Source: a virus. Taken from it: 64,000 nt of DNA. Numbering within the stretch: the first letter of the stretch is position 1; each line of letters opens with the position of its first letter. The notes beneath the pieces were generated by a model that was not told where the DNA came from, made no database searches, and saw only the letters and a program-made list of their open reading frames with translations. Below are positions 4,556 to 62,895 of the stretch, one piece after another. The DNA is taken from the IMG/VR virus record IMGVR_UViG_3300045125_000119, positions 82,165 through 146,164 of that record, one strand, 5' to 3'. The position numbers were made by a program, and so were the translations under genes.

Positions 4556-5322
4556 TTGCAGGCACCGCCAGCTTTAATGAACTCCCCCATCGGAGTCTGG
4601 CGGGCATTATATCCGGCCTTGTCCAATTTTTCAGCAGTGACGGGACAATCGGCAGGAATCACAACGTTTCTATCGACGCAAACCGCATTACAGGCAAAAC
4701 GGTGAGCCTCGTCTTCCGGTACGTCGATCAGGTCGAAGAAACTCGAAAGCATTTGAAATGCCATGCGATCAAATGCCGGAGGGTAAACTAAAGCGTGCCT
4801 GTCTTGAAGCGGACAGAAGCAGGTGTCCAAGTGATAGAAGTGAGGATCGACCAACAACAGGGGCCGTATCGCAACCGAAAATACGTCTCGGACTGCGTAG
4901 TGGGCGGCAAGATCACTTCTGAACCCGTACCCGCACCAAAGAACTCCGTCGGAATCGAACAGGGCGTCCCCGGCACCTTCGTAGCTCAGTTCGTCGGGAA
5001 GCTCGTGAACCTCGAACCCTAGTTGTTCAAACTGACGCCCGTAGAAAGGTTTCTCGCCCTGTCGTTCCGGGTATTTGAAATTGGAGAGTACGACTTGGTT
5101 TTTCCAAACGGTTCCGGCGTTGGCGGTAAAAACGATGTCCGGCAAGTTTGGCTCGCCGGACATTTCGTGAAGTTCAATATTTAGAGATTTGAATAATTGC
5201 ATCAAATCGGCCCACTGGTAATGGGCCAACATGCGATCCGTCGCTTTAGAAGGGTCCATCCAAGGATTTATTTTGTAAAACACCCCGTAGTGGGCGGGGT
5301 TACAGACCAGCAGCCTGTTCAT
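4534..5322 (-). CDS. Amidinotransferase / dimethylargininase-like (pentein superfamily)
   Basis: INPWM, LPDIVFTANAG, YEGAGD, FYHLDTCFCPL, GGACKCLT. Confidence 0.9.
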   Translation of the reverse strand: MNRLLVCNPAHYGVFYKINPWMDPSKATDRMLAHYQWADLMQLFKSLNIELHEMSGEPNLPDIVFTANAGTVWKNQVVLSNFKYPERQGEKPFYGRQFEQLGFEVHELPDELSYEGAGDALFDSDGVLWCGYGFRSDLAAHYAVRDVFSVAIRPLLLVDPHFYHLDTCFCPLQDRHALVYPPAFDRMAFQMLSSFFDLIDVPEDEAHRFACNAVCVDRNVVIPADCPVTAEKLDKAGYNARQTPMGEFIKAGGACKCLTIRF

Positions 5323-5713: not shown

Positions 5714-6232
5714 ATGTCTAACATTGTAAAACAATTCAACAATTCCTTGTTTCCTGAGCTTGTGTTCCCGTCAAGGGACGATCTGTTTTATCCGTTCCAG
5801 TCGTTGTTTGACGACATTTACAACAAAATGACTTCGCAAGTGGCTGGGGATTCGATGAAATCGAGGAATTATCCTCGCTGGGACATCTACGAAACTCCGG
5901 GATTTTATGCGGTAGAAGTGTCAATGCCGGGATTGACGCCAGATGACACAAAGGTAGAAATCTTGCCGGATCATGGTGGTGGCAGAATGTTGAAAGTTTC
6001 TGGGCGAATGAATAGAGAATACCAGCACGGGGATAGCACCAAACACCACGTCCGTGAACTTCGTCGTTCGTCTTTTGAACGATACCACCGACTCCCGAAT
6101 TACGTCCAAGGCGATCCAACCGCCGAGATGAAAGACGGGTTACTTACACTAAAGTGGAACGTAGAAAATACCGCCCCGAAACCAAAGTCGATCCCTATTC
6201 AGGGACAAAAAATTATCGACTCAGACCAGTAA
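5714..6232 (+). CDS. Small heat shock protein Hsp20
   Basis: YPRWDIYE, VEVSMPG, RELRRSSFER, AEMKDGLLTL (alpha-crystallin domain). Confidence 0.9.
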   Translation: MSNIVKQFNNSLFPELVFPSRDDLFYPFQSLFDDIYNKMTSQVAGDSMKSRNYPRWDIYETPGFYAVEVSMPGLTPDDTKVEILPDHGGGRMLKVSGRMNREYQHGDSTKHHVRELRRSSFERYHRLPNYVQGDPTAEMKDGLLTLKWNVENTAPKPKSIPIQGQKIIDSDQ

Positions 6233-8133: not shown

Positions 8134-8161
8134 AGCCGTATTTACCATTTGAGAGGCAAAA

Positions 8162-8597
8162 ATGAACCGCAATTTGATTTGGGTAGTAGCCGCTTTGGGC
8201 CTGTTGGTCGGAATCGTGTTCTTCGTCCGTCACCAAAAACCGGCTCCCGCCCCACTTTAACGGGTGAACGGGAGTTTGACACGAACAAGCCGCCGAAGAC
8301 CTACAAGGACGCACTCGAAACTCAGAAAGTCACCAAGCAGAAAATCTTGGTCGTGTTCGGGGCCGAGTGGTGTGGCCCCTGCAAAAAGTTGCACAATGAA
8401 ACTTTGGCAGACCCGGAAATTAAAGAACTGCTAGTTTCATATATCTTTATATACATTGACTCGGACGCCAATAAGGAACTAGCTCATTCATTTAATGTCG
8501 AGGCTTTGCCGTCCTATTATGTTATAGATAACGGCAAGATATCAAAAGAAGGCAGTGGATATAAATCCACGCCGGAATTCAGAAGTGGCTTCATTAG
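8162..8597 (+). CDS. Membrane-anchored thioredoxin-like protein; frameshifted
   Basis: Hydrophobic N-terminus, FGAEWCGPCKK, ALPSY. Confidence 0.8.
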
Positions 8598-8605
8598 GAA
8601 ACATT

Positions 8606-9306
8606 TTATTGAACAGAGTTTCGATTTCCGAGGGATATCATGCCCCGGAAAACGTCCAAATCCATTGCCAGTCCCGTGATCCCTTCGGGGAACAATTTCT
8701 TCACAAATGGCGACAAAACCAGATAATATGGGCTGATTTTGCCCATATTGATCCATCGGTAGAAGTTCTTGTTGGCGACGGCGAGTTGCAAGTCCTCGAA
8801 CTTGGCCTCGGTAAAAGTCTTGACCAGAAACTCTTTGGTCGTAGTGAGCGCCGACGCCACTTTCATCAAGTTTGCGGGCACAACAGAGCTAGTCTCGTTA
8901 ACCTTTAGACACACTATCATATTTGCAGCTCCACATCTTCCAACGAATCCAAGCTTTGTCCCCACATAGACAATTTGGACCGATCAAACAGTGATTAGAA
9001 GGACGGTGCGTCGATATCTACTTTAAGATTTCCAACTGTGCCCGGACGTAGAGTGGATAATCTCTTTCTTCCAATATTCCCTGTGTTTCCCGAACGAGTT
9101 TGTAGCACTGTTTGAATATAAGTGACTTTCGGGGATCGCCTTTGGCGCGCCATTTTTGCATGTTTGTATTCCAGGAGACGCTTTTCGGCTCCAGATCGAG
9201 CCACAGTAGCGTGAGTTTGTACGCCCGGCTCTCAAGTTCGGTCATGTCGTAATCGACAATGGCATCGAAGTCTCATGTCTTTCTCGCTCGGTGACTGGTC
9301 GGGCAT
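8606..9306 (-). CDS. Hypothetical protein; frameshifted
   Basis: Continuous protein-like fragments (KGDPRKSLIFKQCYKL...KISPYYLVLSPF) with an upstream GGAG. Confidence 0.55.
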
Positions 9307-9395
9307 AGGATATCTCCGTTTCGGAATTGCGCCCAAGAGGAATATTTGGTCATTTCGGCTTGCCTTGTTCGGCGACTTCGGGTAAAAGTGTGTTT

Positions 9396-9965
9396 GTCAC
9401 GACTGCTCCTTGCGGGTTTGTGACCGGAAATATCCGTCCGCACCTACAGTCCGACGAAAGCAATTAGGGTCGGTGCAAACCTGCCAAGATTGCCGAACTA
9501 CTTGGACTATGAGAATTAGTTAGTTTGGATATTGCTTCCACTTTGAACACTGGCACGGACACGCGACAGAGATAACACGCCTAAGATCGTGACGTATTCG
9601 AGGGGAGAGTTCACCGCCCTCCTTTGCCGTGGGACCGGGTTGCGCCTGTAAGCCCCATACCGGATGAGATTAAATTCTTCTGTGTCTCACAAGGACACAC
9701 ACAGGAAGCCACAGGTAGTTAGCGGCTCCCTAACTTCAATTCACCTAACGGACACAAACGTGTCTGTGGACTAGCGTCACTGACACTGGGTTAGTGACAA
9801 GAAATGCTTGTGCACCGAAGCTCCCAAATAAAAGTAGGAGTGAGGTGGAAGGGTTCTGATCCTCCTCAGAGTTTGGTGTGTTTTTTTCCCTCTACTAAAC
9901 CACATAGATTCTAAATCTCTTGTATTTAGGCTAGGACACAACATCATCGTCCCGGGAGCGGTGCT
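9396..9965 (+). ncRNA. Candidate large structured ncRNA or origin element (~570 nt)
   Basis: No credible ORF. TTGCCT-N17-TAAAAG promoter at 9360. More than 10 stems, including GTCACGA/TTGTGAC, GTCCG/CGGAC, TGCCA/TGGCA, CTTCTGTGT/ACACAGGAAG and GTCACTGAC/GTTAGTGAC. Confidence 0.55.
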
Positions 9966-10069
9966 ATGCGGCAAATCATATCTGGAATAATTGACGCAAG
10001 TCTCTTGCTGTGTCCGACTGCAGGCAGTATCATTTAGCTGAACAAAGAGAAATCCCTTTTGGTCGGCGC

Positions 10070-11432
10070 ATGGACTCCGTCAAAACTAACCCGTGTGTTG
10101 GCAGATGCCGTTACAGCCGGGCAGAATGTGTATGTGCCACTTCGCCGGAGATGTTGGACTTCACCGATCCGTCGTTCCGGGCGAGTTGACGATTTTCGGT
10201 CAGGGCGGGAACGTGGTGACGGTTTCGTTGAACAGTATTTCTGGAAACTGTTGTTGGCGTATTGAGAGAAGTTTCCAGTGTTCTCCAAGAACATGAAGGT
10301 ATTGTAGTTGTTGGAACTGGAAGAGTGGCCTGTAAGTTACATCAAGAACCGAACCGGAAGAGGATTTCTCCGTCGATGCCGCAATCATTGACTTGAAAGT
10401 GATCGAGTCTTTTGCGGGGTTTGGGCGGAAAAAGCCGCGAAATCTCTCGCCGACGGGTTGAACAGAGTCAAGGCGCGGGTGTCGTCGGGCGTCTGGAAGG
10501 AGGTTCAACCGGTTTACCAGAAGGTTCATTTGCCCTTGGTCACGGAAGTGGTCCCGGCGTGCTTAGAGACAGTCGGCGTTTTGAACGCGTGTTGGGCAAG
10601 CGAGTTTGCCCGCTTGTTACGAGGTTTGTGGTCAGGTGAACGGGCGACTGAACAGTGGGTCAGAATTTCCTCGAAGGGTTCCACCCGCACGGTTTGAAGC
10701 GAGGACGTAAAAAAGCGACTGAAGCCCAACGCTTTGGACGAAATGTTTATGTATTTCGACTTTAAGAACATGGAAGTGTCAATGTTGCAGTGGTTGTCAA
10801 AAGACGAGCAACTCGCACGGGCAATGGAAATGCCGGACGTGTATTGTTGGAAATTTACAGGTTGGTGACGGGAATCGAGTCGAAAGAAAAAGATGACCGA
10901 AATAAGGCGTAAAAAAAATGTTTCTGCCGGTTATATACGGTCAGTCAGCCCAGGCATTGGGTCATCGACTAAAGGTTGCCCTTCCCACCGCTGAGAAGAT
11001 CGTCACCCGGATTCGTGAGTTGTTCCCGACGGCATTGGCCTATACCAGAGCCGTACACAGAACAAGCAAAGGCTTCCGGGTCCGCAAAAAGACATCTTCG
11101 GCGAAAGCCGGCGTCAATTCTCGCAGGGGGAGGAGTACGACGCTCTCGGCTTTTCTGTCCAGGCACCTGCGTCTACTGTTTGCTTGGAAAAAGAAAACTT
11201 GTCCGGGTCCCATTCCGCTGTAAAAGGCATCACGTCGCTGGCGTACAGCGTACACGACGGGTGTTGCGTTTACGCCCACAAGGAAAACTGGAAGAAAGTT
11301 TACAGGTTGGGCTACGACGTACTGACGGGGGAAAGTTCCCTTTGTCCGGGTCTTCGGTTGAAGGTCACTTGTCACGCCGGGCGGAATCTAGATTCGTTGA
11401 AATCCGTTGGAACAACCAAGGAGTCTAAATGA
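10070..11432 (+). CDS. polA: Minimal family-A DNA polymerase (~450 aa); multiply frameshifted
   Basis: NGRL, motif A MYFDFKNMEV (~10750), motif B RNKA-KKMFLPVIYG, VQAPAS, motif C SVHDG. Confidence 0.75.
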
Positions 11433-11992
11433 AAGACATCTGCTTGAAGTATCGGGTCACTGAGGAAGAGTACCTGGAATTGAACAAGGAATACGGCCGT
11501 TTGTGTTGGAAGGCCGCTCACGAGTTGAAGAGGAAGAATTCCCGCAACAATTACACCGACGACGCCGAGGACATTTACCAAAAGTCTCGTTGAGGCGATG
11601 TTGCGTGCGGGTTCGTATTACAAGCGTCAAATATGCATAGAAAAATGTCTGGCGCTCGCATAAGGAATACGCCCAAGATGATTTTGTGGGTTGGGTGGTC
11701 AAAGAGCTAAACAGTTTGTGGGAGAATCGCACCCGCCACGGTGCGAACCGGCGAAGTTCGGCCCATTTCAAGAAAAGCTGCTCGACCGCATAATTCGCCC
11801 GTCTGGTCCCCGCCCGTTACAGACCACGTCGCACGGAACCACTCAAGATCGACTCGAAGTTCGGCACATATTGCAAGGCAATTGTGTGGAACAGCCAGAA
11901 GAAGTATGGGCAAACGAATTACTCGTGAAAAGTCTATTCGCTGCGGACAGGTGAGTTTGTCCGAATTCGATCACGTTACGGCCGGAATCTGA
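11429..11992 (+). CDS. Hypothetical protein, possibly sigma-factor-like; frameshifted
   Basis: YGRLCWKAAHEL...DDAEDIYQ resembles sigma region 2; translationally coupled to polA. Confidence 0.35.
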
Positions 11993-12063: not shown

Positions 12064-12586
12064 ATGAAAGAATATGTCATTAATTCACACCCGGCTGATT
12101 GACGCCGATGGTCCCAAGGATCGTGTCCCTATTGATTCACAAAGAAACCCGCTTGGCAGGCCGGAGCGGCTCAACCTTCTCGGCGGGAAAGTCGAAGAGG
12201 GCGAGGATACGATTGCCTGTGCCATTCGGGAACTAAAGAAGAGTCGGGATTACAGCCCGACCGATGCACCGACGCCGTATTGCTTTGCGGTTCAATCGTG
12301 GGAAACCAGTCGCTAGTACATTGCGTGCGTATTGACGTGTGTTCTTATGACGCCGTTCTGAAACCGGGGGCAGACGAAATCGAGAAGGTTGAATGGTTCA
12401 ATATGGCCGACGCTATTGTTGACGAGCGTCTGATGCCTAACCTTCAGATCATTATCCCTTTGATGCACATGGGTGTGGTCGGTTGGCAGGTGATTGACCA
12501 GAAATCGTCCTCGATCTACCGGGGTTCATGACGTGACTGTTCACCTGCCCATCCGTAAACCTTTTGAGAATGAGGCCGGAAAGTAA
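12064..12586 (+). CDS. Nudix hydrolase; frameshifted
   Basis: GGKVEEGEDTIACAIRELKEE Nudix box. Confidence 0.85.
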
Positions 12587-14135
12587 TGCGTGAACTGACA
12601 CCAGAAGAACAGGCAAAACTCGAAGCGTTGAGCGGGGACGGGACCAAGGTCAAGTTCTCTTGGGACGACACGTTCCAGCGCAGAATTGATGGGGATGTTG
12701 TTGACCGACCGGGCCATGCTCACGCAGAGCATGGACAAAATAGACCCGGATATTTCTCGAACGAAGTCCACGTCATGGCGTGCAAGATTTTGTTCGAGTA
12801 TTTCACCTAACAGCGTTCGTTGCCGAAATTTGGGTGATGAAGCAGAAATGTCTGACCGCCTGAAGGACCGAGACAAGGCTATCCAGATTCACTTTATGGG
12901 CGAACTGGAAAGTCTCTACACCTATTACGTTCCGGGTCTGGACACCCGTGAATATCTTCTCGAAAGGTGGTGAATTTCGCCAAGGTTCAGGCCGTCAAGG
13001 TGGCCTTCCACCGGTGCGTTGACAAAATGACGGAAGCCCCAGAGGGCGAAGAAACTTGGAGTTTCGTGTACGACCAGATCACGAAAAGCGATGACGGTCG
13101 AAAGGGAACGGGCCAAAGGGTCTTGAGTATTTCATGAACATTGACGAAATGTTCAAGCGGATGAAAGAAAAGATGTCCGGCAAGGACCGGTTCACGACCG
13201 CCTTTGAGAGCATCGACAACGCCTTGACCGGCGGCGGTCTGTTCCCCGGAGAGATTGCAGCTTGGATCGCCCTGCCGGGCGTCGGCAAATCCCTCGCCAT
13301 GTGTAAGGCCGCTGTCGCCAACGTCTTGTTGGGCCACAAGGTTCTTTACTTGACGATGGAAATGGACGAAGTCGGCGTCGGCCAGCGGTTCACGTCGCAA
13401 ATGTTCAAATACGACGTGAACAATTTGTTGGGGATGGAAGCCGAGATTAAGGGGCCATTTCCGACTTCAAAGCAGAGCAAAGCCGACCCGAACCAGTTGA
13501 TGATTACTCAGTTCCCCGGCGGCGTTTTGGACGTGAACGGGATTCGGGCCTACTACAACCAGTTGTCGCTCCGGGGTTGGAAGCCGAACCTGTTGATTAT
13601 TGACTACGTCGGCGAAATGAAATTCAACACCGGGAAACACAAACAGAAGTACGAAGCCGCTTACGAAATTTTGCGCGACTTGAGAGCGTTCGGCATCGAG
13701 GAACAGCACTGCGCGACCACCGCTTTGCAGCCCAGCGCCGGTGCCGCCCGGCTGGAGATTCGCCAGTACATTGACGAATCGAATATCGGCACGGCGTTCG
13801 ACCAGTTCAAGCCTCTTGACGCTTTCTGGAGCATTAACCAGCAGAGTTGTTGAGAAGGACGCCGAAGTCGGGCGTGGGTTCGTGATTAAGCACCGCAACG
13901 GCCGGTCCCGGTTCCCGTTCAGAATGGGCTTCGATTACAAACTAGGTACTCTTGACATTTTCGAGATAAGCAGGATGAAGTATCGGGGAGAGTCGATGAA
14001 TATGATGCAAGATAAGAAGTCCGGTGAGATTCGAATCTGACGCCGTGCCCGGCGAGGCAGAAACAAAAGTCCAAGCGTGGATTTAAGCCCAGCGCAGCCA
14101 TCGAACCTTCCGAAGAGGAATTGCGGGGTGAATGA
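12586..14135 (+). CDS. DnaB/gp41-like replicative helicase; frameshifted
   Basis: IDNALTGGGLFPGE, ALPGVGKS, VLYLTMEM, LLIIDY, KHRNG. Confidence 0.85.
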
Positions 14136-30299: not shown

Positions 30300-30824
30300 A
30301 TGAACAACGAAAGAAAATTCAAAAAGAAAAAGGAACGGGAAAGAAGGTCAAGGAGAAGATGGCCGTTCGACGTGCAGCCCTGCACGAACACCGTAAAGAG
30401 CAACGGGCCGAAGAACTGCGTCTTCAGGCCGAATTTGAACTCAAAAACGGCAAACCCGAACCTATTCTGAATGACCCGGAAGCTATTCTGCGTCGTGAGG
30501 AAAAAGAAAAAGGCCAATGTCGAAGACCGCCTCAAGAGGAACCTTGCTATATTGGAGGCTCTCGAAGCGGAATACGATCAGGAGCAAACTCTGCGACAGA
30601 AAGTTAACGAGAAGCTCGAAGAAGAGGGGCACACCACAATAAAGGCCAAACTCGACGCCATGCACAAGAAGGCCAAAGAAATACAGCAAATCATGAGCGG
30701 TGTATCTAAGGTCGGGCAAGGATCGACTCCGGCCGAACTCACCCCAGAAGAAATGAGCTTGGCGTCCAAAGTCGAAGAGGAAATTGTGGTGGCCGAAAAT
30801 ATTTCCCAGGAATCTGAAAAATAA
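30300..30824 (+). CDS. Coiled-coil hypothetical protein; frameshifted
   Basis: K/E/R-rich ORF fragments. Confidence 0.5.
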
Positions 30825-43234: not shown

Positions 43235-43916
43235 TCATTCGGCTTGTCCATTAAAGCCTCGAACTCTTTGCTTGAGTTTTCCAATTCCGACCTCAGTTAT
43301 CACCACAAAATCCCAACCACGGGCTTCGCAGTGTTGTTGGCACGCCGTCCATTTGGCCTGATTAACTGCCAGATGAGTTTGGTTTGCCGGTTTAATCTCC
43401 CAAATTTCAACATGGCCGTCATCAAATACTATGCTCAGGTCCGGGTTGTATTCGTGTACGTCGCCGTTAATCGAGTATTTTATAGCAAATGGCTCGACAT
43501 CATATTTAATCACTTCCGGCATCTGTTCCAGACACTCGTAAACCTCGCACTCTTTTCCAGAGCGGTAGTGCATTTCTCTGCCGCCATTTTTGTTTGACAC
43601 CAAATATCCTTCACGGAATTTCGGTCGTCTAGCTTTTAGCTTGCCGTCCTTCCCCGACTGATCCTTCCAGATCATTGCTTTCATTTGGCCGCACTTCGGC
43701 ACCGTTTCAGAGGGGTGCTTGGCCTTGAAGTGCATACGAATGTCCCGAACGGGGGCACCGCAGCGGGCGAGGGGGACAAATGACGAATTCTCGACCTTCG
43801 TCGTGCGTTTCGACTATGTGAGTTTTGAACTCCTCGAATTCGGTAAATTGAACCCCGCAGACGAAGCACTGAAACTTCTGCTTGCCGTCGTCTTTGGGAA
43901 ATGGAAAGTTACTCAT
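43235..43916 (-). CDS. C2H2 zinc finger fused to TnsA/gp4-like PD-(D/E)xK nuclease; frameshifted
   Basis: CFVC-x12-HIVETH; YRSGKE, YNPDL, EIKP. Confidence 0.75.
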
Positions 43917-62484: not shown

Positions 62485-62838
62485 GGGGGTGACGGGTTTC
62501 GACGGATTGTGTCTGAGTTTGGGTGGCACGCACTGGAGCATGATCGTCGAAGGCCAGTATAAAAGTCGATCACGCCTTAACCGGCGGGAACGTTCTCTCG
62601 CAATGGCGGCTTGACCGCCAAGGTTACGGCAGCGACGTGGGTAGCGTCTGTGGCTACGCCTACATATCCCGCTGGCTCCAAGTTCTTGCAGCCACGACTT
62701 GAGTGAGAAATGATGCTGTATGCCGAAGTCAACCTTTTTCCGATGTGGTTGATTAGGCGAGATTGGAACAACGGAATAAGCGTGTAGAGGCTCATTCTTT
62801 GAGCGGTTCGGACGAGGGTTCAGTTCCCTCCACCTCCA
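62485..62838 (+). ncRNA. ssrA: tmRNA
   Basis: 5' GGGGGTGACGGGTTTCGAC; 3' GAGGG-TTCAGTT-CCCTC-CACCTCC-A with a G3-U pair; tag ...ERSLAMAA* (62588-62614); TTGACA promoter at 62440. Confidence 0.93.
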
Positions 62839-62895
62839 CATTTCGTCCCAGCGTGCGATTGACGTGGGTGGTGCCTTTCTGGAGACTTCTGGCGT

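Follow-up and report, generated by a model that had tools for sequence, protein, structure and literature searches.

Within the window analyzed here, a 64-kb stretch of phage DNA that forms the end of a 146-kb virus record (IMGVR_UViG_3300045125_000119, 34% complete), a long non-coding element lies directly upstream of a gene for a family-A DNA polymerase (PolA). We found that this element belongs to a family carried by related phages, in which it is 400-600 bases long, folded, conserved, covarying and pseudoknotted, and present in a single copy in each of the five genomes with a profile match. We propose that it is an RNA-primed origin of replication of the ColE1 kind, served by a dedicated PolA without a thumb subdomain that would hand over to the helicase DnaB and the polymerase DnaE, and we give this reading a probability of about two in three. 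An earlier sequence-only reading of the window had offered either such an origin or, in the manner of retrons and DRTs, a PolA templated or guided by the RNA; the first now has indirect support from covariation, a GC-skew minimum, a direct repeat and the finding of a primase-like gene in the element's place at some loci, while no positive support emerged for the second.

We gathered 162 loci (the best 80 of 183 viral and the best 80 of 107 metagenomic matches, many of them near-duplicates). These share a block in which a divergent 237-aa gene (121/162 loci) is followed by a gap, PolA (162), a 187-aa protein (151) and DnaB (123), and the gap measures at least 350 nt in 114 of the 142 loci with a placeable upstream open reading frame (ORF). 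The gap sequences fall into types, named here big (77 loci, 39 distinct), c10, c3, c2 and the window's type. Element profiles match 110 of 163 loci when their own training members are counted; among the 140 loci having at least 1.5 kb upstream, 98 are matched. Four loci (L004, L006, L007 and L088) carry the separate type c2, 760 nt upstream of PolA and with an internal inverted repeat; the PolAs of these phages are nested among big-type PolAs. At another locus (L087, ~4650-4790), a tandem duplication of ~45 nt lies within the element, with intact flanks.

The sequence-only reading had suggested comparing the regions upstream of PolA homologues, and these do display structural conservation and covariation. 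Using RNAalifold on 20 big-type sequences, we found 31 pairs, 20 of them with double changes. Once the pseudoknot was added, 97.2% of 650 cells were paired and double changes appeared in 21 of 33 pairs, including the long-range pseudoknot; none of 500 shuffles paired as highly and slid controls reached 34-42%, the structure being partly derived from the sequences on which it was scored. An unbiased scan against a tree-aware null, using 34 rows after exclusion of 5 near-duplicate or partial ones, kept four column pairs, of which three are Watson-Crick at E <= 0.1. The outer helix contains one of these three, and the other two link a hairpin loop to a block ~90-110 nt before the PolA start. The c10 type shows by eye the same loop-target pairing and the same long-range helix, here called P, with different letters.

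The strongest covariation signal is one of identity, column 144 being equal to column 420 in 34/34 rows. An internal 5-mer matches a 3′ 5-mer in 28/28 rows with one column of slack and in 21/28 without it, and this repeat takes the form of eight different words, with at least seven changes on the tree (shuffle mean 6.3, maximum 14). Its match in the c10 type is 2-5 nt by eye. A complement of the repeat inside the RNA at a fixed place was found at best in only 13/28 rows. The simplest reading of these alignments is that the internal copy would pair with DNA, on the strand that complements the 3′ copy.

In the window itself, ORFs are shattered, and because the Illumina contigs lack many of the window's single letters, we attribute the breaks to contig errors. 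The element is spanned by Illumina contigs from runs X1 and X2, which over 800 letters show 20 differing letters and 29 gap letters. The stems named by the sequence-only reading are all where it placed them (GTCACGA at 9396 with TTGTGAC at 9418; GTCCG at 9436 and 9449 with CGGAC at 9556; TGCCA at 9482 with TGGCA at 9551; CCGAACT at 9493 with AGTTTGG at 9522; GTCACTGAC at 9776 with GTTAGTGAC at 9790), yet several of these nested stems are not the conserved ones, and the X1/X2 letters alter G9436, so that one of the two GTCCG copies is lost. Folded alone, 9393-9965 barely beats its shuffles (z -1.45 on the + strand and -1.61 on the - strand), the best 120-nt window within this stretch reaching z -3.2. 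Since folding only slightly exceeds that of shuffles, stems from a single sequence prove little and the proof is comparative. The σ70-like promoter claimed for the element has its letters in place (TTGCCT at 9360, TAAAAG at 9383), but a consensus promoter scan of the window does not list it, and the -10 box reads TAAAGT in Illumina letters, four runs lacking one A at 9384. The claim that the stretch holds no credible ORF was borne out, the only one of at least 50 aa listed over 9444-10009 being a 65-aa ORF on the - strand (9777-9974). A hidden protein gene was rejected, homologous intervals being ORF-free and conserved for pairing.

The window's type comprises three sequences, those of the window and of loci L110 and L032, and a profile built from the latter two alone gives a single significant match across the 146 kb of the genome, namely the window's element (9519-9731, E 7e-10). 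Two pattern scans for further members returned only L032 again (1/10 and 1/104 loci). A core domain was recognized by eye from compensatory letters among the three, with helix A reading CACGA/UCGUG (X1 letters), UGCGA/UCGCA and UGCCA/UGGCA around an invariant loop (9572-9585). The loop of the following hairpin, CACCGC, is complementary to GCGGUG at 9958-9963, making 6 bp in the window and 7 bp with the A9957G of X1/X2. In helix P, CCGGAUGA is complementary to the block preceding this GCGGUG target; the helix is strengthened by G9949A in X1/X2/X3, is also present in L110 and L032, and covaries in the big type. The 3′ target block stands 85-130 nt ahead of the PolA start, a position common to the element types. 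That the window's type is kin to the big type we infer from its slot and architecture and not from a score: by eye, the helices follow each other in the same order (outer, inner, A, then the pseudoknot hairpin, P and the 3′ target), and a single-sequence descriptor performs at shuffle level.

No known RNA family accounts for the element. Rfam gave no element match at the gathering threshold for the window's element and 11 clean loci, the large RNAs considered being ROOL, GOLLD, OLE, HEARO, group I/II introns, RNase P and 6S; the check for a known intron or RNA family, which the sequence-only reading had named as capable of refuting it, thus came back empty. In the literature searched, largely open-access and without supplements, we found no description of the element; the supplements of PMC11348598 and PMC10201439 may list these proteins.

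We next consider the polymerase. A 117-aa piece from the window matched P0001, an intact 440-aa relative that is 88% identical over the piece, and alignment to P0001 sets the start of PolA at 10070. The description of a ~450-aa PolA that has motifs A, B and C and no clear proofreading motifs stands, except that the start had been put at ~9966. A search with P0001 returned 111 proteins, nearly all of 420-460 aa. D224, E229, K274, G283 and D385 are invariant across 67 aligned sequences, and R270, Y282 and H384 are present in at least 90%, motif C reading HDG (aligned to Bst Pol I); motifs A, B and C, including the two catalytic aspartates and the steric-gate glutamate, indicate an intact polymerase site. 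The model of P0001 (pLDDT 95.7) has a Klenow-like fold that, along the entire chain, superposes on the Taq large fragment (Z 32.4, rmsd 2.5, 386 aligned) and on Bst (409 aligned). The match to PF00476 (DNA_pol_A) begins at profile position 105 of 381, and only 26 residues, modeled as a short hairpin, separate E161 from R187; on these grounds the thumb subdomain is, judging from profile and model, absent from the whole PolA family. The 3′-5′ exonuclease domain aligns structurally, and by eye the consensus has no conserved acid at the positions that we take to be Exo I, II and III. The missing thumb, and the resemblance to the published divPolA1 discussed below, go beyond the sequence-only reading. 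That PolA is a pseudogene was rejected, as the extra letters are missing from Illumina contigs and its relatives include intact ones; that it is an RNA polymerase is unlikely, because E229 is invariant.

In a quick tree, P0001 clusters with c3-type loci and apart from L032 and L110, which suggests exchange of the module.

We then analyzed GC skew, a check on the origin that the sequence-only reading had put forward. The cumulative minimum was computed for 10 genomes or genome parts, and 7 of them have it no more than 1 kb from the slot. In the complete 533-kb genome G001 it lies at 512,997, inside the element (512,694-513,203), and in G003 at 79,861 (element 78,573-78,981). After detrending, it lies at 70,884 in G002 (70,204-70,588), at 148,220 in G010 (148,693-149,162), at 395,633 and inside the slot in LR756511 (595 kb), at 30,800 and inside the gap in the first 100 kb of G006, and at 43,432 in G004, adjoining the divergent gene, where the element was not detected. 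The genome of the window has its minimum at 86,175, 5.4 kb from the slot and with a flat bottom. Because genes diverge at the locus, third-position skew was compared within each gene orientation; of the 20 genome-by-gene-orientation sets, 19 show an increase across the locus and one shows no change. When 45 loci are pooled, every bin upstream of -500 has negative skew and the bins from there onward have positive skew, a pattern confounded by gene direction. These data suggest, indirectly, that the long non-coding element lies at the origin.

A further argument comes from replacement. At six loci (L062, L119, L122, L125, L130 and L176), the slot is occupied by a gene of a ~390-aa family that abuts the PolA start; none of the six has an element match, and no element-bearing genome has a homologue. 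The family carries the motifs GRVH, DIxNSQ, RxxxK and IHD, and R182, D209, R281/K285 and D364 are invariant in 5 sequences, with Q replacing the steric-gate E. By motif, it has the hairpin arginine, the two aspartates and the RxxxK reported for TV-Pol (Iyer et al. 2008, PMC2579912), which we group with the family-A primases (CCPol-MP, PMC10201439). Atlas supports this assignment, the nearest cluster being an auto-named family-A palm protein (score 0.98, TM 0.86); the family had no Pfam or PDB match, and hhalign to the PolA profile gave 1%. The slot protein is likely a primase-initiator, as read from its motifs. Among other genes near this position, L072 (3622-5880) has an HNH-helicase-like gene upstream of PolA, and L061 (2794-5073) a 760-aa TnpB/Cas12-like gene just upstream of the gap. 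A Prim-Pol gene stands upstream of PolA in L051 (2632-3357); this is weak evidence because three element-bearing genomes have a homologue elsewhere.

From conservation, covariation, position and replacement, we infer all the steps of the following mechanism. RNA polymerase would transcribe the element from the 9360-9388 promoter, and through its hairpin loop and helix P the folded RNA would grip the 3′ target block, which may be the RNA's own 3′ end or lie on the top DNA strand. Next, an internal stretch of 4-5 nt that repeats the 3′ site would pair with the template strand and nucleate a persistent hybrid. A 3′ end would arise by cleavage or termination and be extended briefly by PolA, presumably of low processivity, into a D-loop, onto which DnaB would load before DnaE, of phage or host, takes over. 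A further version, which we regard as unlikely, would make the RNA a guided initiator that opens the origin by pairing with both strands at a single site in the manner of a bridge RNA, provides the primer and takes over the part of the thumb of its own polymerase; it would be exchangeable for a protein primase and re-targetable through a few base changes.

Several observations weigh against an RNA-primed origin at this locus. Skew minima lie elsewhere in G007 and in the complete 527-kb genome G005, five of the seven matches need detrending, the raw minimum fitting only in G001 and G003, and gene orientation also switches at the block. Neither an element match nor the primase-like gene was found at 37 of 140 loci, many of which keep a 430-1000-nt gap beside the divergent gene. 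As noted, the window's element type rests on three sequences, and R1, a covariance model derived from the cores of the big and c10 types, gave no match at the element in the window, L110, L032 or the c3 loci; it matches L096 (E 0.0025) and, weakly, L037 (E 0.43). The repeat is imperfect in the window's type, at 4/5 in L110 and L032 and ~3/5 in the window; the differences are U versus C, which would leave a wobble pair with the template. In the L015 group, six rows have neither the flanking hairpin nor the identity, and the count of 28 does not include them. A search of 5 genomes for RNase H found it in only 2, and the thumbless PolA of Immutovirus has no upstream gap of element size (56 nt in MW353176).

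Could the RNA instead be a stable subunit of the polymerase, substituting for the thumb and guiding PolA to the origin via both DNA strands, possibly in trans? In this geometry, the loop and helix P would sit on the top strand and the repeat on the bottom strand. The absence of a thumb throughout the PolA family fits such a role, as does the convergence of three pairing arms within ~15 nt of one target. The three c3-type loci have a terminator-like hairpin and U run upstream of the 3′ target, in which case the target would be DNA; such a site is nevertheless present at only 3 of 45 loci on the + strand, versus 2 on the - strand. Moreover, element types do not track the PolA tree, which argues against tight co-evolution of the two, and in L147 and L153 the element remains next to the divergent gene despite other genes intervening before PolA. 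We consider a subunit role quite unlikely.

Covariation and skew fit RNA and single-stranded DNA alike, and hairpin origins are known, so that the element might act as a folded single-stranded DNA origin or primosome-assembly signal, recognized by the divergent or the 187-aa protein and having no functional transcript. Against this stand the G-U pairs retained at several positions, the promoter-like boxes seen by eye before the element and before PolA, and a multi-helix pseudoknotted fold of 400 nt that is large for a DNA signal, and we hold the idea to be improbable. It is very improbable that the RNA is a template which PolA copies between the direct repeats before jumping, giving repeated cDNA in the manner of DRT2 or telomerase: the repeats flank ~270 nt and would be brought close by the pseudoknot, and certain family-A enzymes copy RNA, but the interval is conserved in structure yet variable in sequence and length, the locus sits within a core replication block at a skew minimum, a primase-like gene occupies the same slot, and contigs contain no joints (a weak test). 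A regulatory or other structured RNA (leader, sponge or ribozyme) lying at the origin by chance between divergent operons is very improbable too. In its favor is the place between divergent promoters and beside a sigma-like gene, at the kind of switch where origins often lie; against it, the identity covariation and the primase-like exchange are left unexplained, and a separate promoter-like box for PolA follows the element.

Coordinates of the element, its parts and the neighboring replication genes in the window
Feature	Position	Strand	Remarks
Folded non-coding element (predicted origin and gene for a primer RNA)	9395..9970	+	Profile match
Predicted σ70-type promoter of the element	9360..9388	+	TTGCCT-17-TAAAAG, by eye
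Core domain	9552..9628	+	Inner helix 9552-9555/9625-9628; helix A 9560-9566/9587-9591; hairpin 9603-9607/9619-9623
Hairpin loop CACCGC(C), complement of 3′ target 9957-9963	9612..9618	+	Predicted pseudoknot or pairing with top DNA strand
5′ strand CCGGATGA of long-range helix P	9660..9667	+	Partner ~9944-9956
3′ target block (repeat, P strand, pseudoknot target)	9940..9970	+	Predicted hybrid-formation and priming site
Predicted separate promoter of the PolA operon	10005..10033	+	TTGCTG-17-TATCAT, by eye
Family-A DNA polymerase of ~440 aa, lacking thumb and exonuclease carboxylates	10070..11432	+	Frameshifted by contig errors
Conserved ~187-aa protein, weak σ70 region 2 likeness	11429..11992	+	Overlaps PolA stop
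DnaB-like replicative helicase	12586..14040	+	Broken frames, ends approximate
N-terminal part of phage DnaE	60300..60674	+	Split gene in relatives
Divergent conserved ~237-aa gene	8606..9300	-	Broken frames, pieces 8606-8965 and 9018-9245; start approximate

Boxes resembling the predicted PolA-operon promoter also stand before PolA in homologues. Of the genes around the element, the divergent one had no Pfam or PHROG match. The ORF downstream of PolA, described earlier as sigma-like, does neighbor PolA in most of the loci counted above, but its sigma likeness is weak (Sigma70_r2, E 0.08 in one homologue; Atlas Sigma70_r2 protein set, 0.95). The helicase gene matches DnaB_C (E 1e-8) and phrog_19. 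The phage DnaE reported from the window alone is there, and DnaE is present in 7 of 9 records searched. It is split in G002-G005 into genes for a ~470-aa N-terminal and a ~900-980-aa C-terminal part, 5-16 kb apart. In the complete genome G001 (L009 record), no DnaE or PolB match was found, leaving the thumbless PolA as the sole polymerase that these searches detected. Between the 187-aa gene and DnaB, the window has a gene (12074-12531) that we take to be NUDIX-like, and upstream of the block a thioredoxin-like gene and Hsp20 (8149-8679 and 5714-6232).

With regard to the sources, blastn against GenBank phages gave zero matches. Runs X6 and X7 carry an RNA-Seq label and are probably DNA, and run X16 contributed no reads. 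At one locus (L164), the block sits in a bin titled Chloracidobacterium sp., probably on a phage contig within the bin. The sole Rfam match in the window is a tmRNA at 62485-62841 on the + strand (RF00023, 86 bits), missed by ARAGORN probably because of contig errors.

The replication start of phages of 350-600 kb is largely unknown, and the locus narrows a candidate origin down to a few hundred bases. The element would represent an undescribed family of large structured RNAs, as predicted here, and would give the puzzling thumbless PolAs a role, and its slot is one where such an RNA and a primase-like protein replace each other in nature. The covarying repeat is a handle for a direct mutate-and-rescue test. 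If the RNA does pair with both strands, this would be a new, RNA-guided way of opening an origin, and possibly the basis of a programmable or orthogonal replicon.

Among known polymerases, the closest is divPolA1 of Immutovirus and relatives, which the accessible part of its description reports to have a truncated thumb and an inactive exonuclease (Yutin et al. 2024, PMC11348598). The element-linked PolA shares with it these two features, a length of ~440 aa, a second polymerase encoded elsewhere and replication genes downstream. In contrast to this likeness, the 441-aa PolA of MW353176 (immuto35A_1) is 19% identical (hhalign probability 89%, E 2e-6), the neighbors of the Immutovirus PolA are SSB, RecA and a 5′-3′ exonuclease, and the available part of the divPolA1 account mentions no RNA (PMC11348598). 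No Flavobacterium phage was among 42 tblastn records. We thus call the enzyme divPolA1-like from shared architecture.

The possible geometry of pairing recalls the target loop of the IS110 bridge RNA, with one arm on the bottom strand left of the site and the others on the top strand right of it; unlike in IS110, there is no recombinase, the arms are of 4-8 nt and the target is possibly the RNA's own 3′ end. The alternation of element and primase-like gene mirrors that of ColE1 and ColE2, the Rep protein of ColE2 being a primase.

ColE1 itself remains the nearest parallel. According to the accessible part of the account, its 550-nt RNA II forms a persistent hybrid, 4-5 residual nucleotides are extended by Pol I, and helicase is loaded on the D-loop (PMC5043065). 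Replication of ColE1 then passes to DnaB and Pol III. As in ColE1, the phage locus combines a folded non-coding element of ~500 nt, predicted to be an RNA with its own predicted promoter, a family-A starter polymerase and, later, a helicase. Unlike ColE1, the genomes are those of phages of about 340-600 kb, the phage supplies the polymerase, which has no thumb, and the repeat takes different words. The Rfam comparison described above showed no homology to ColE1 RNAs in sequence or structure. The consensus promoter scan lists no promoter on the - strand of the window, no search having been aimed at an antisense RNA I or Rop. In ColE1, the G-run of RNA II pairs with a C-run of the template, a point that the literature searched did not confirm, and the internal segment identical to the origin segment would be the phage parallel of this G-run. 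The element thus probably works like a ColE1 origin while standing outside the ColE1 family.

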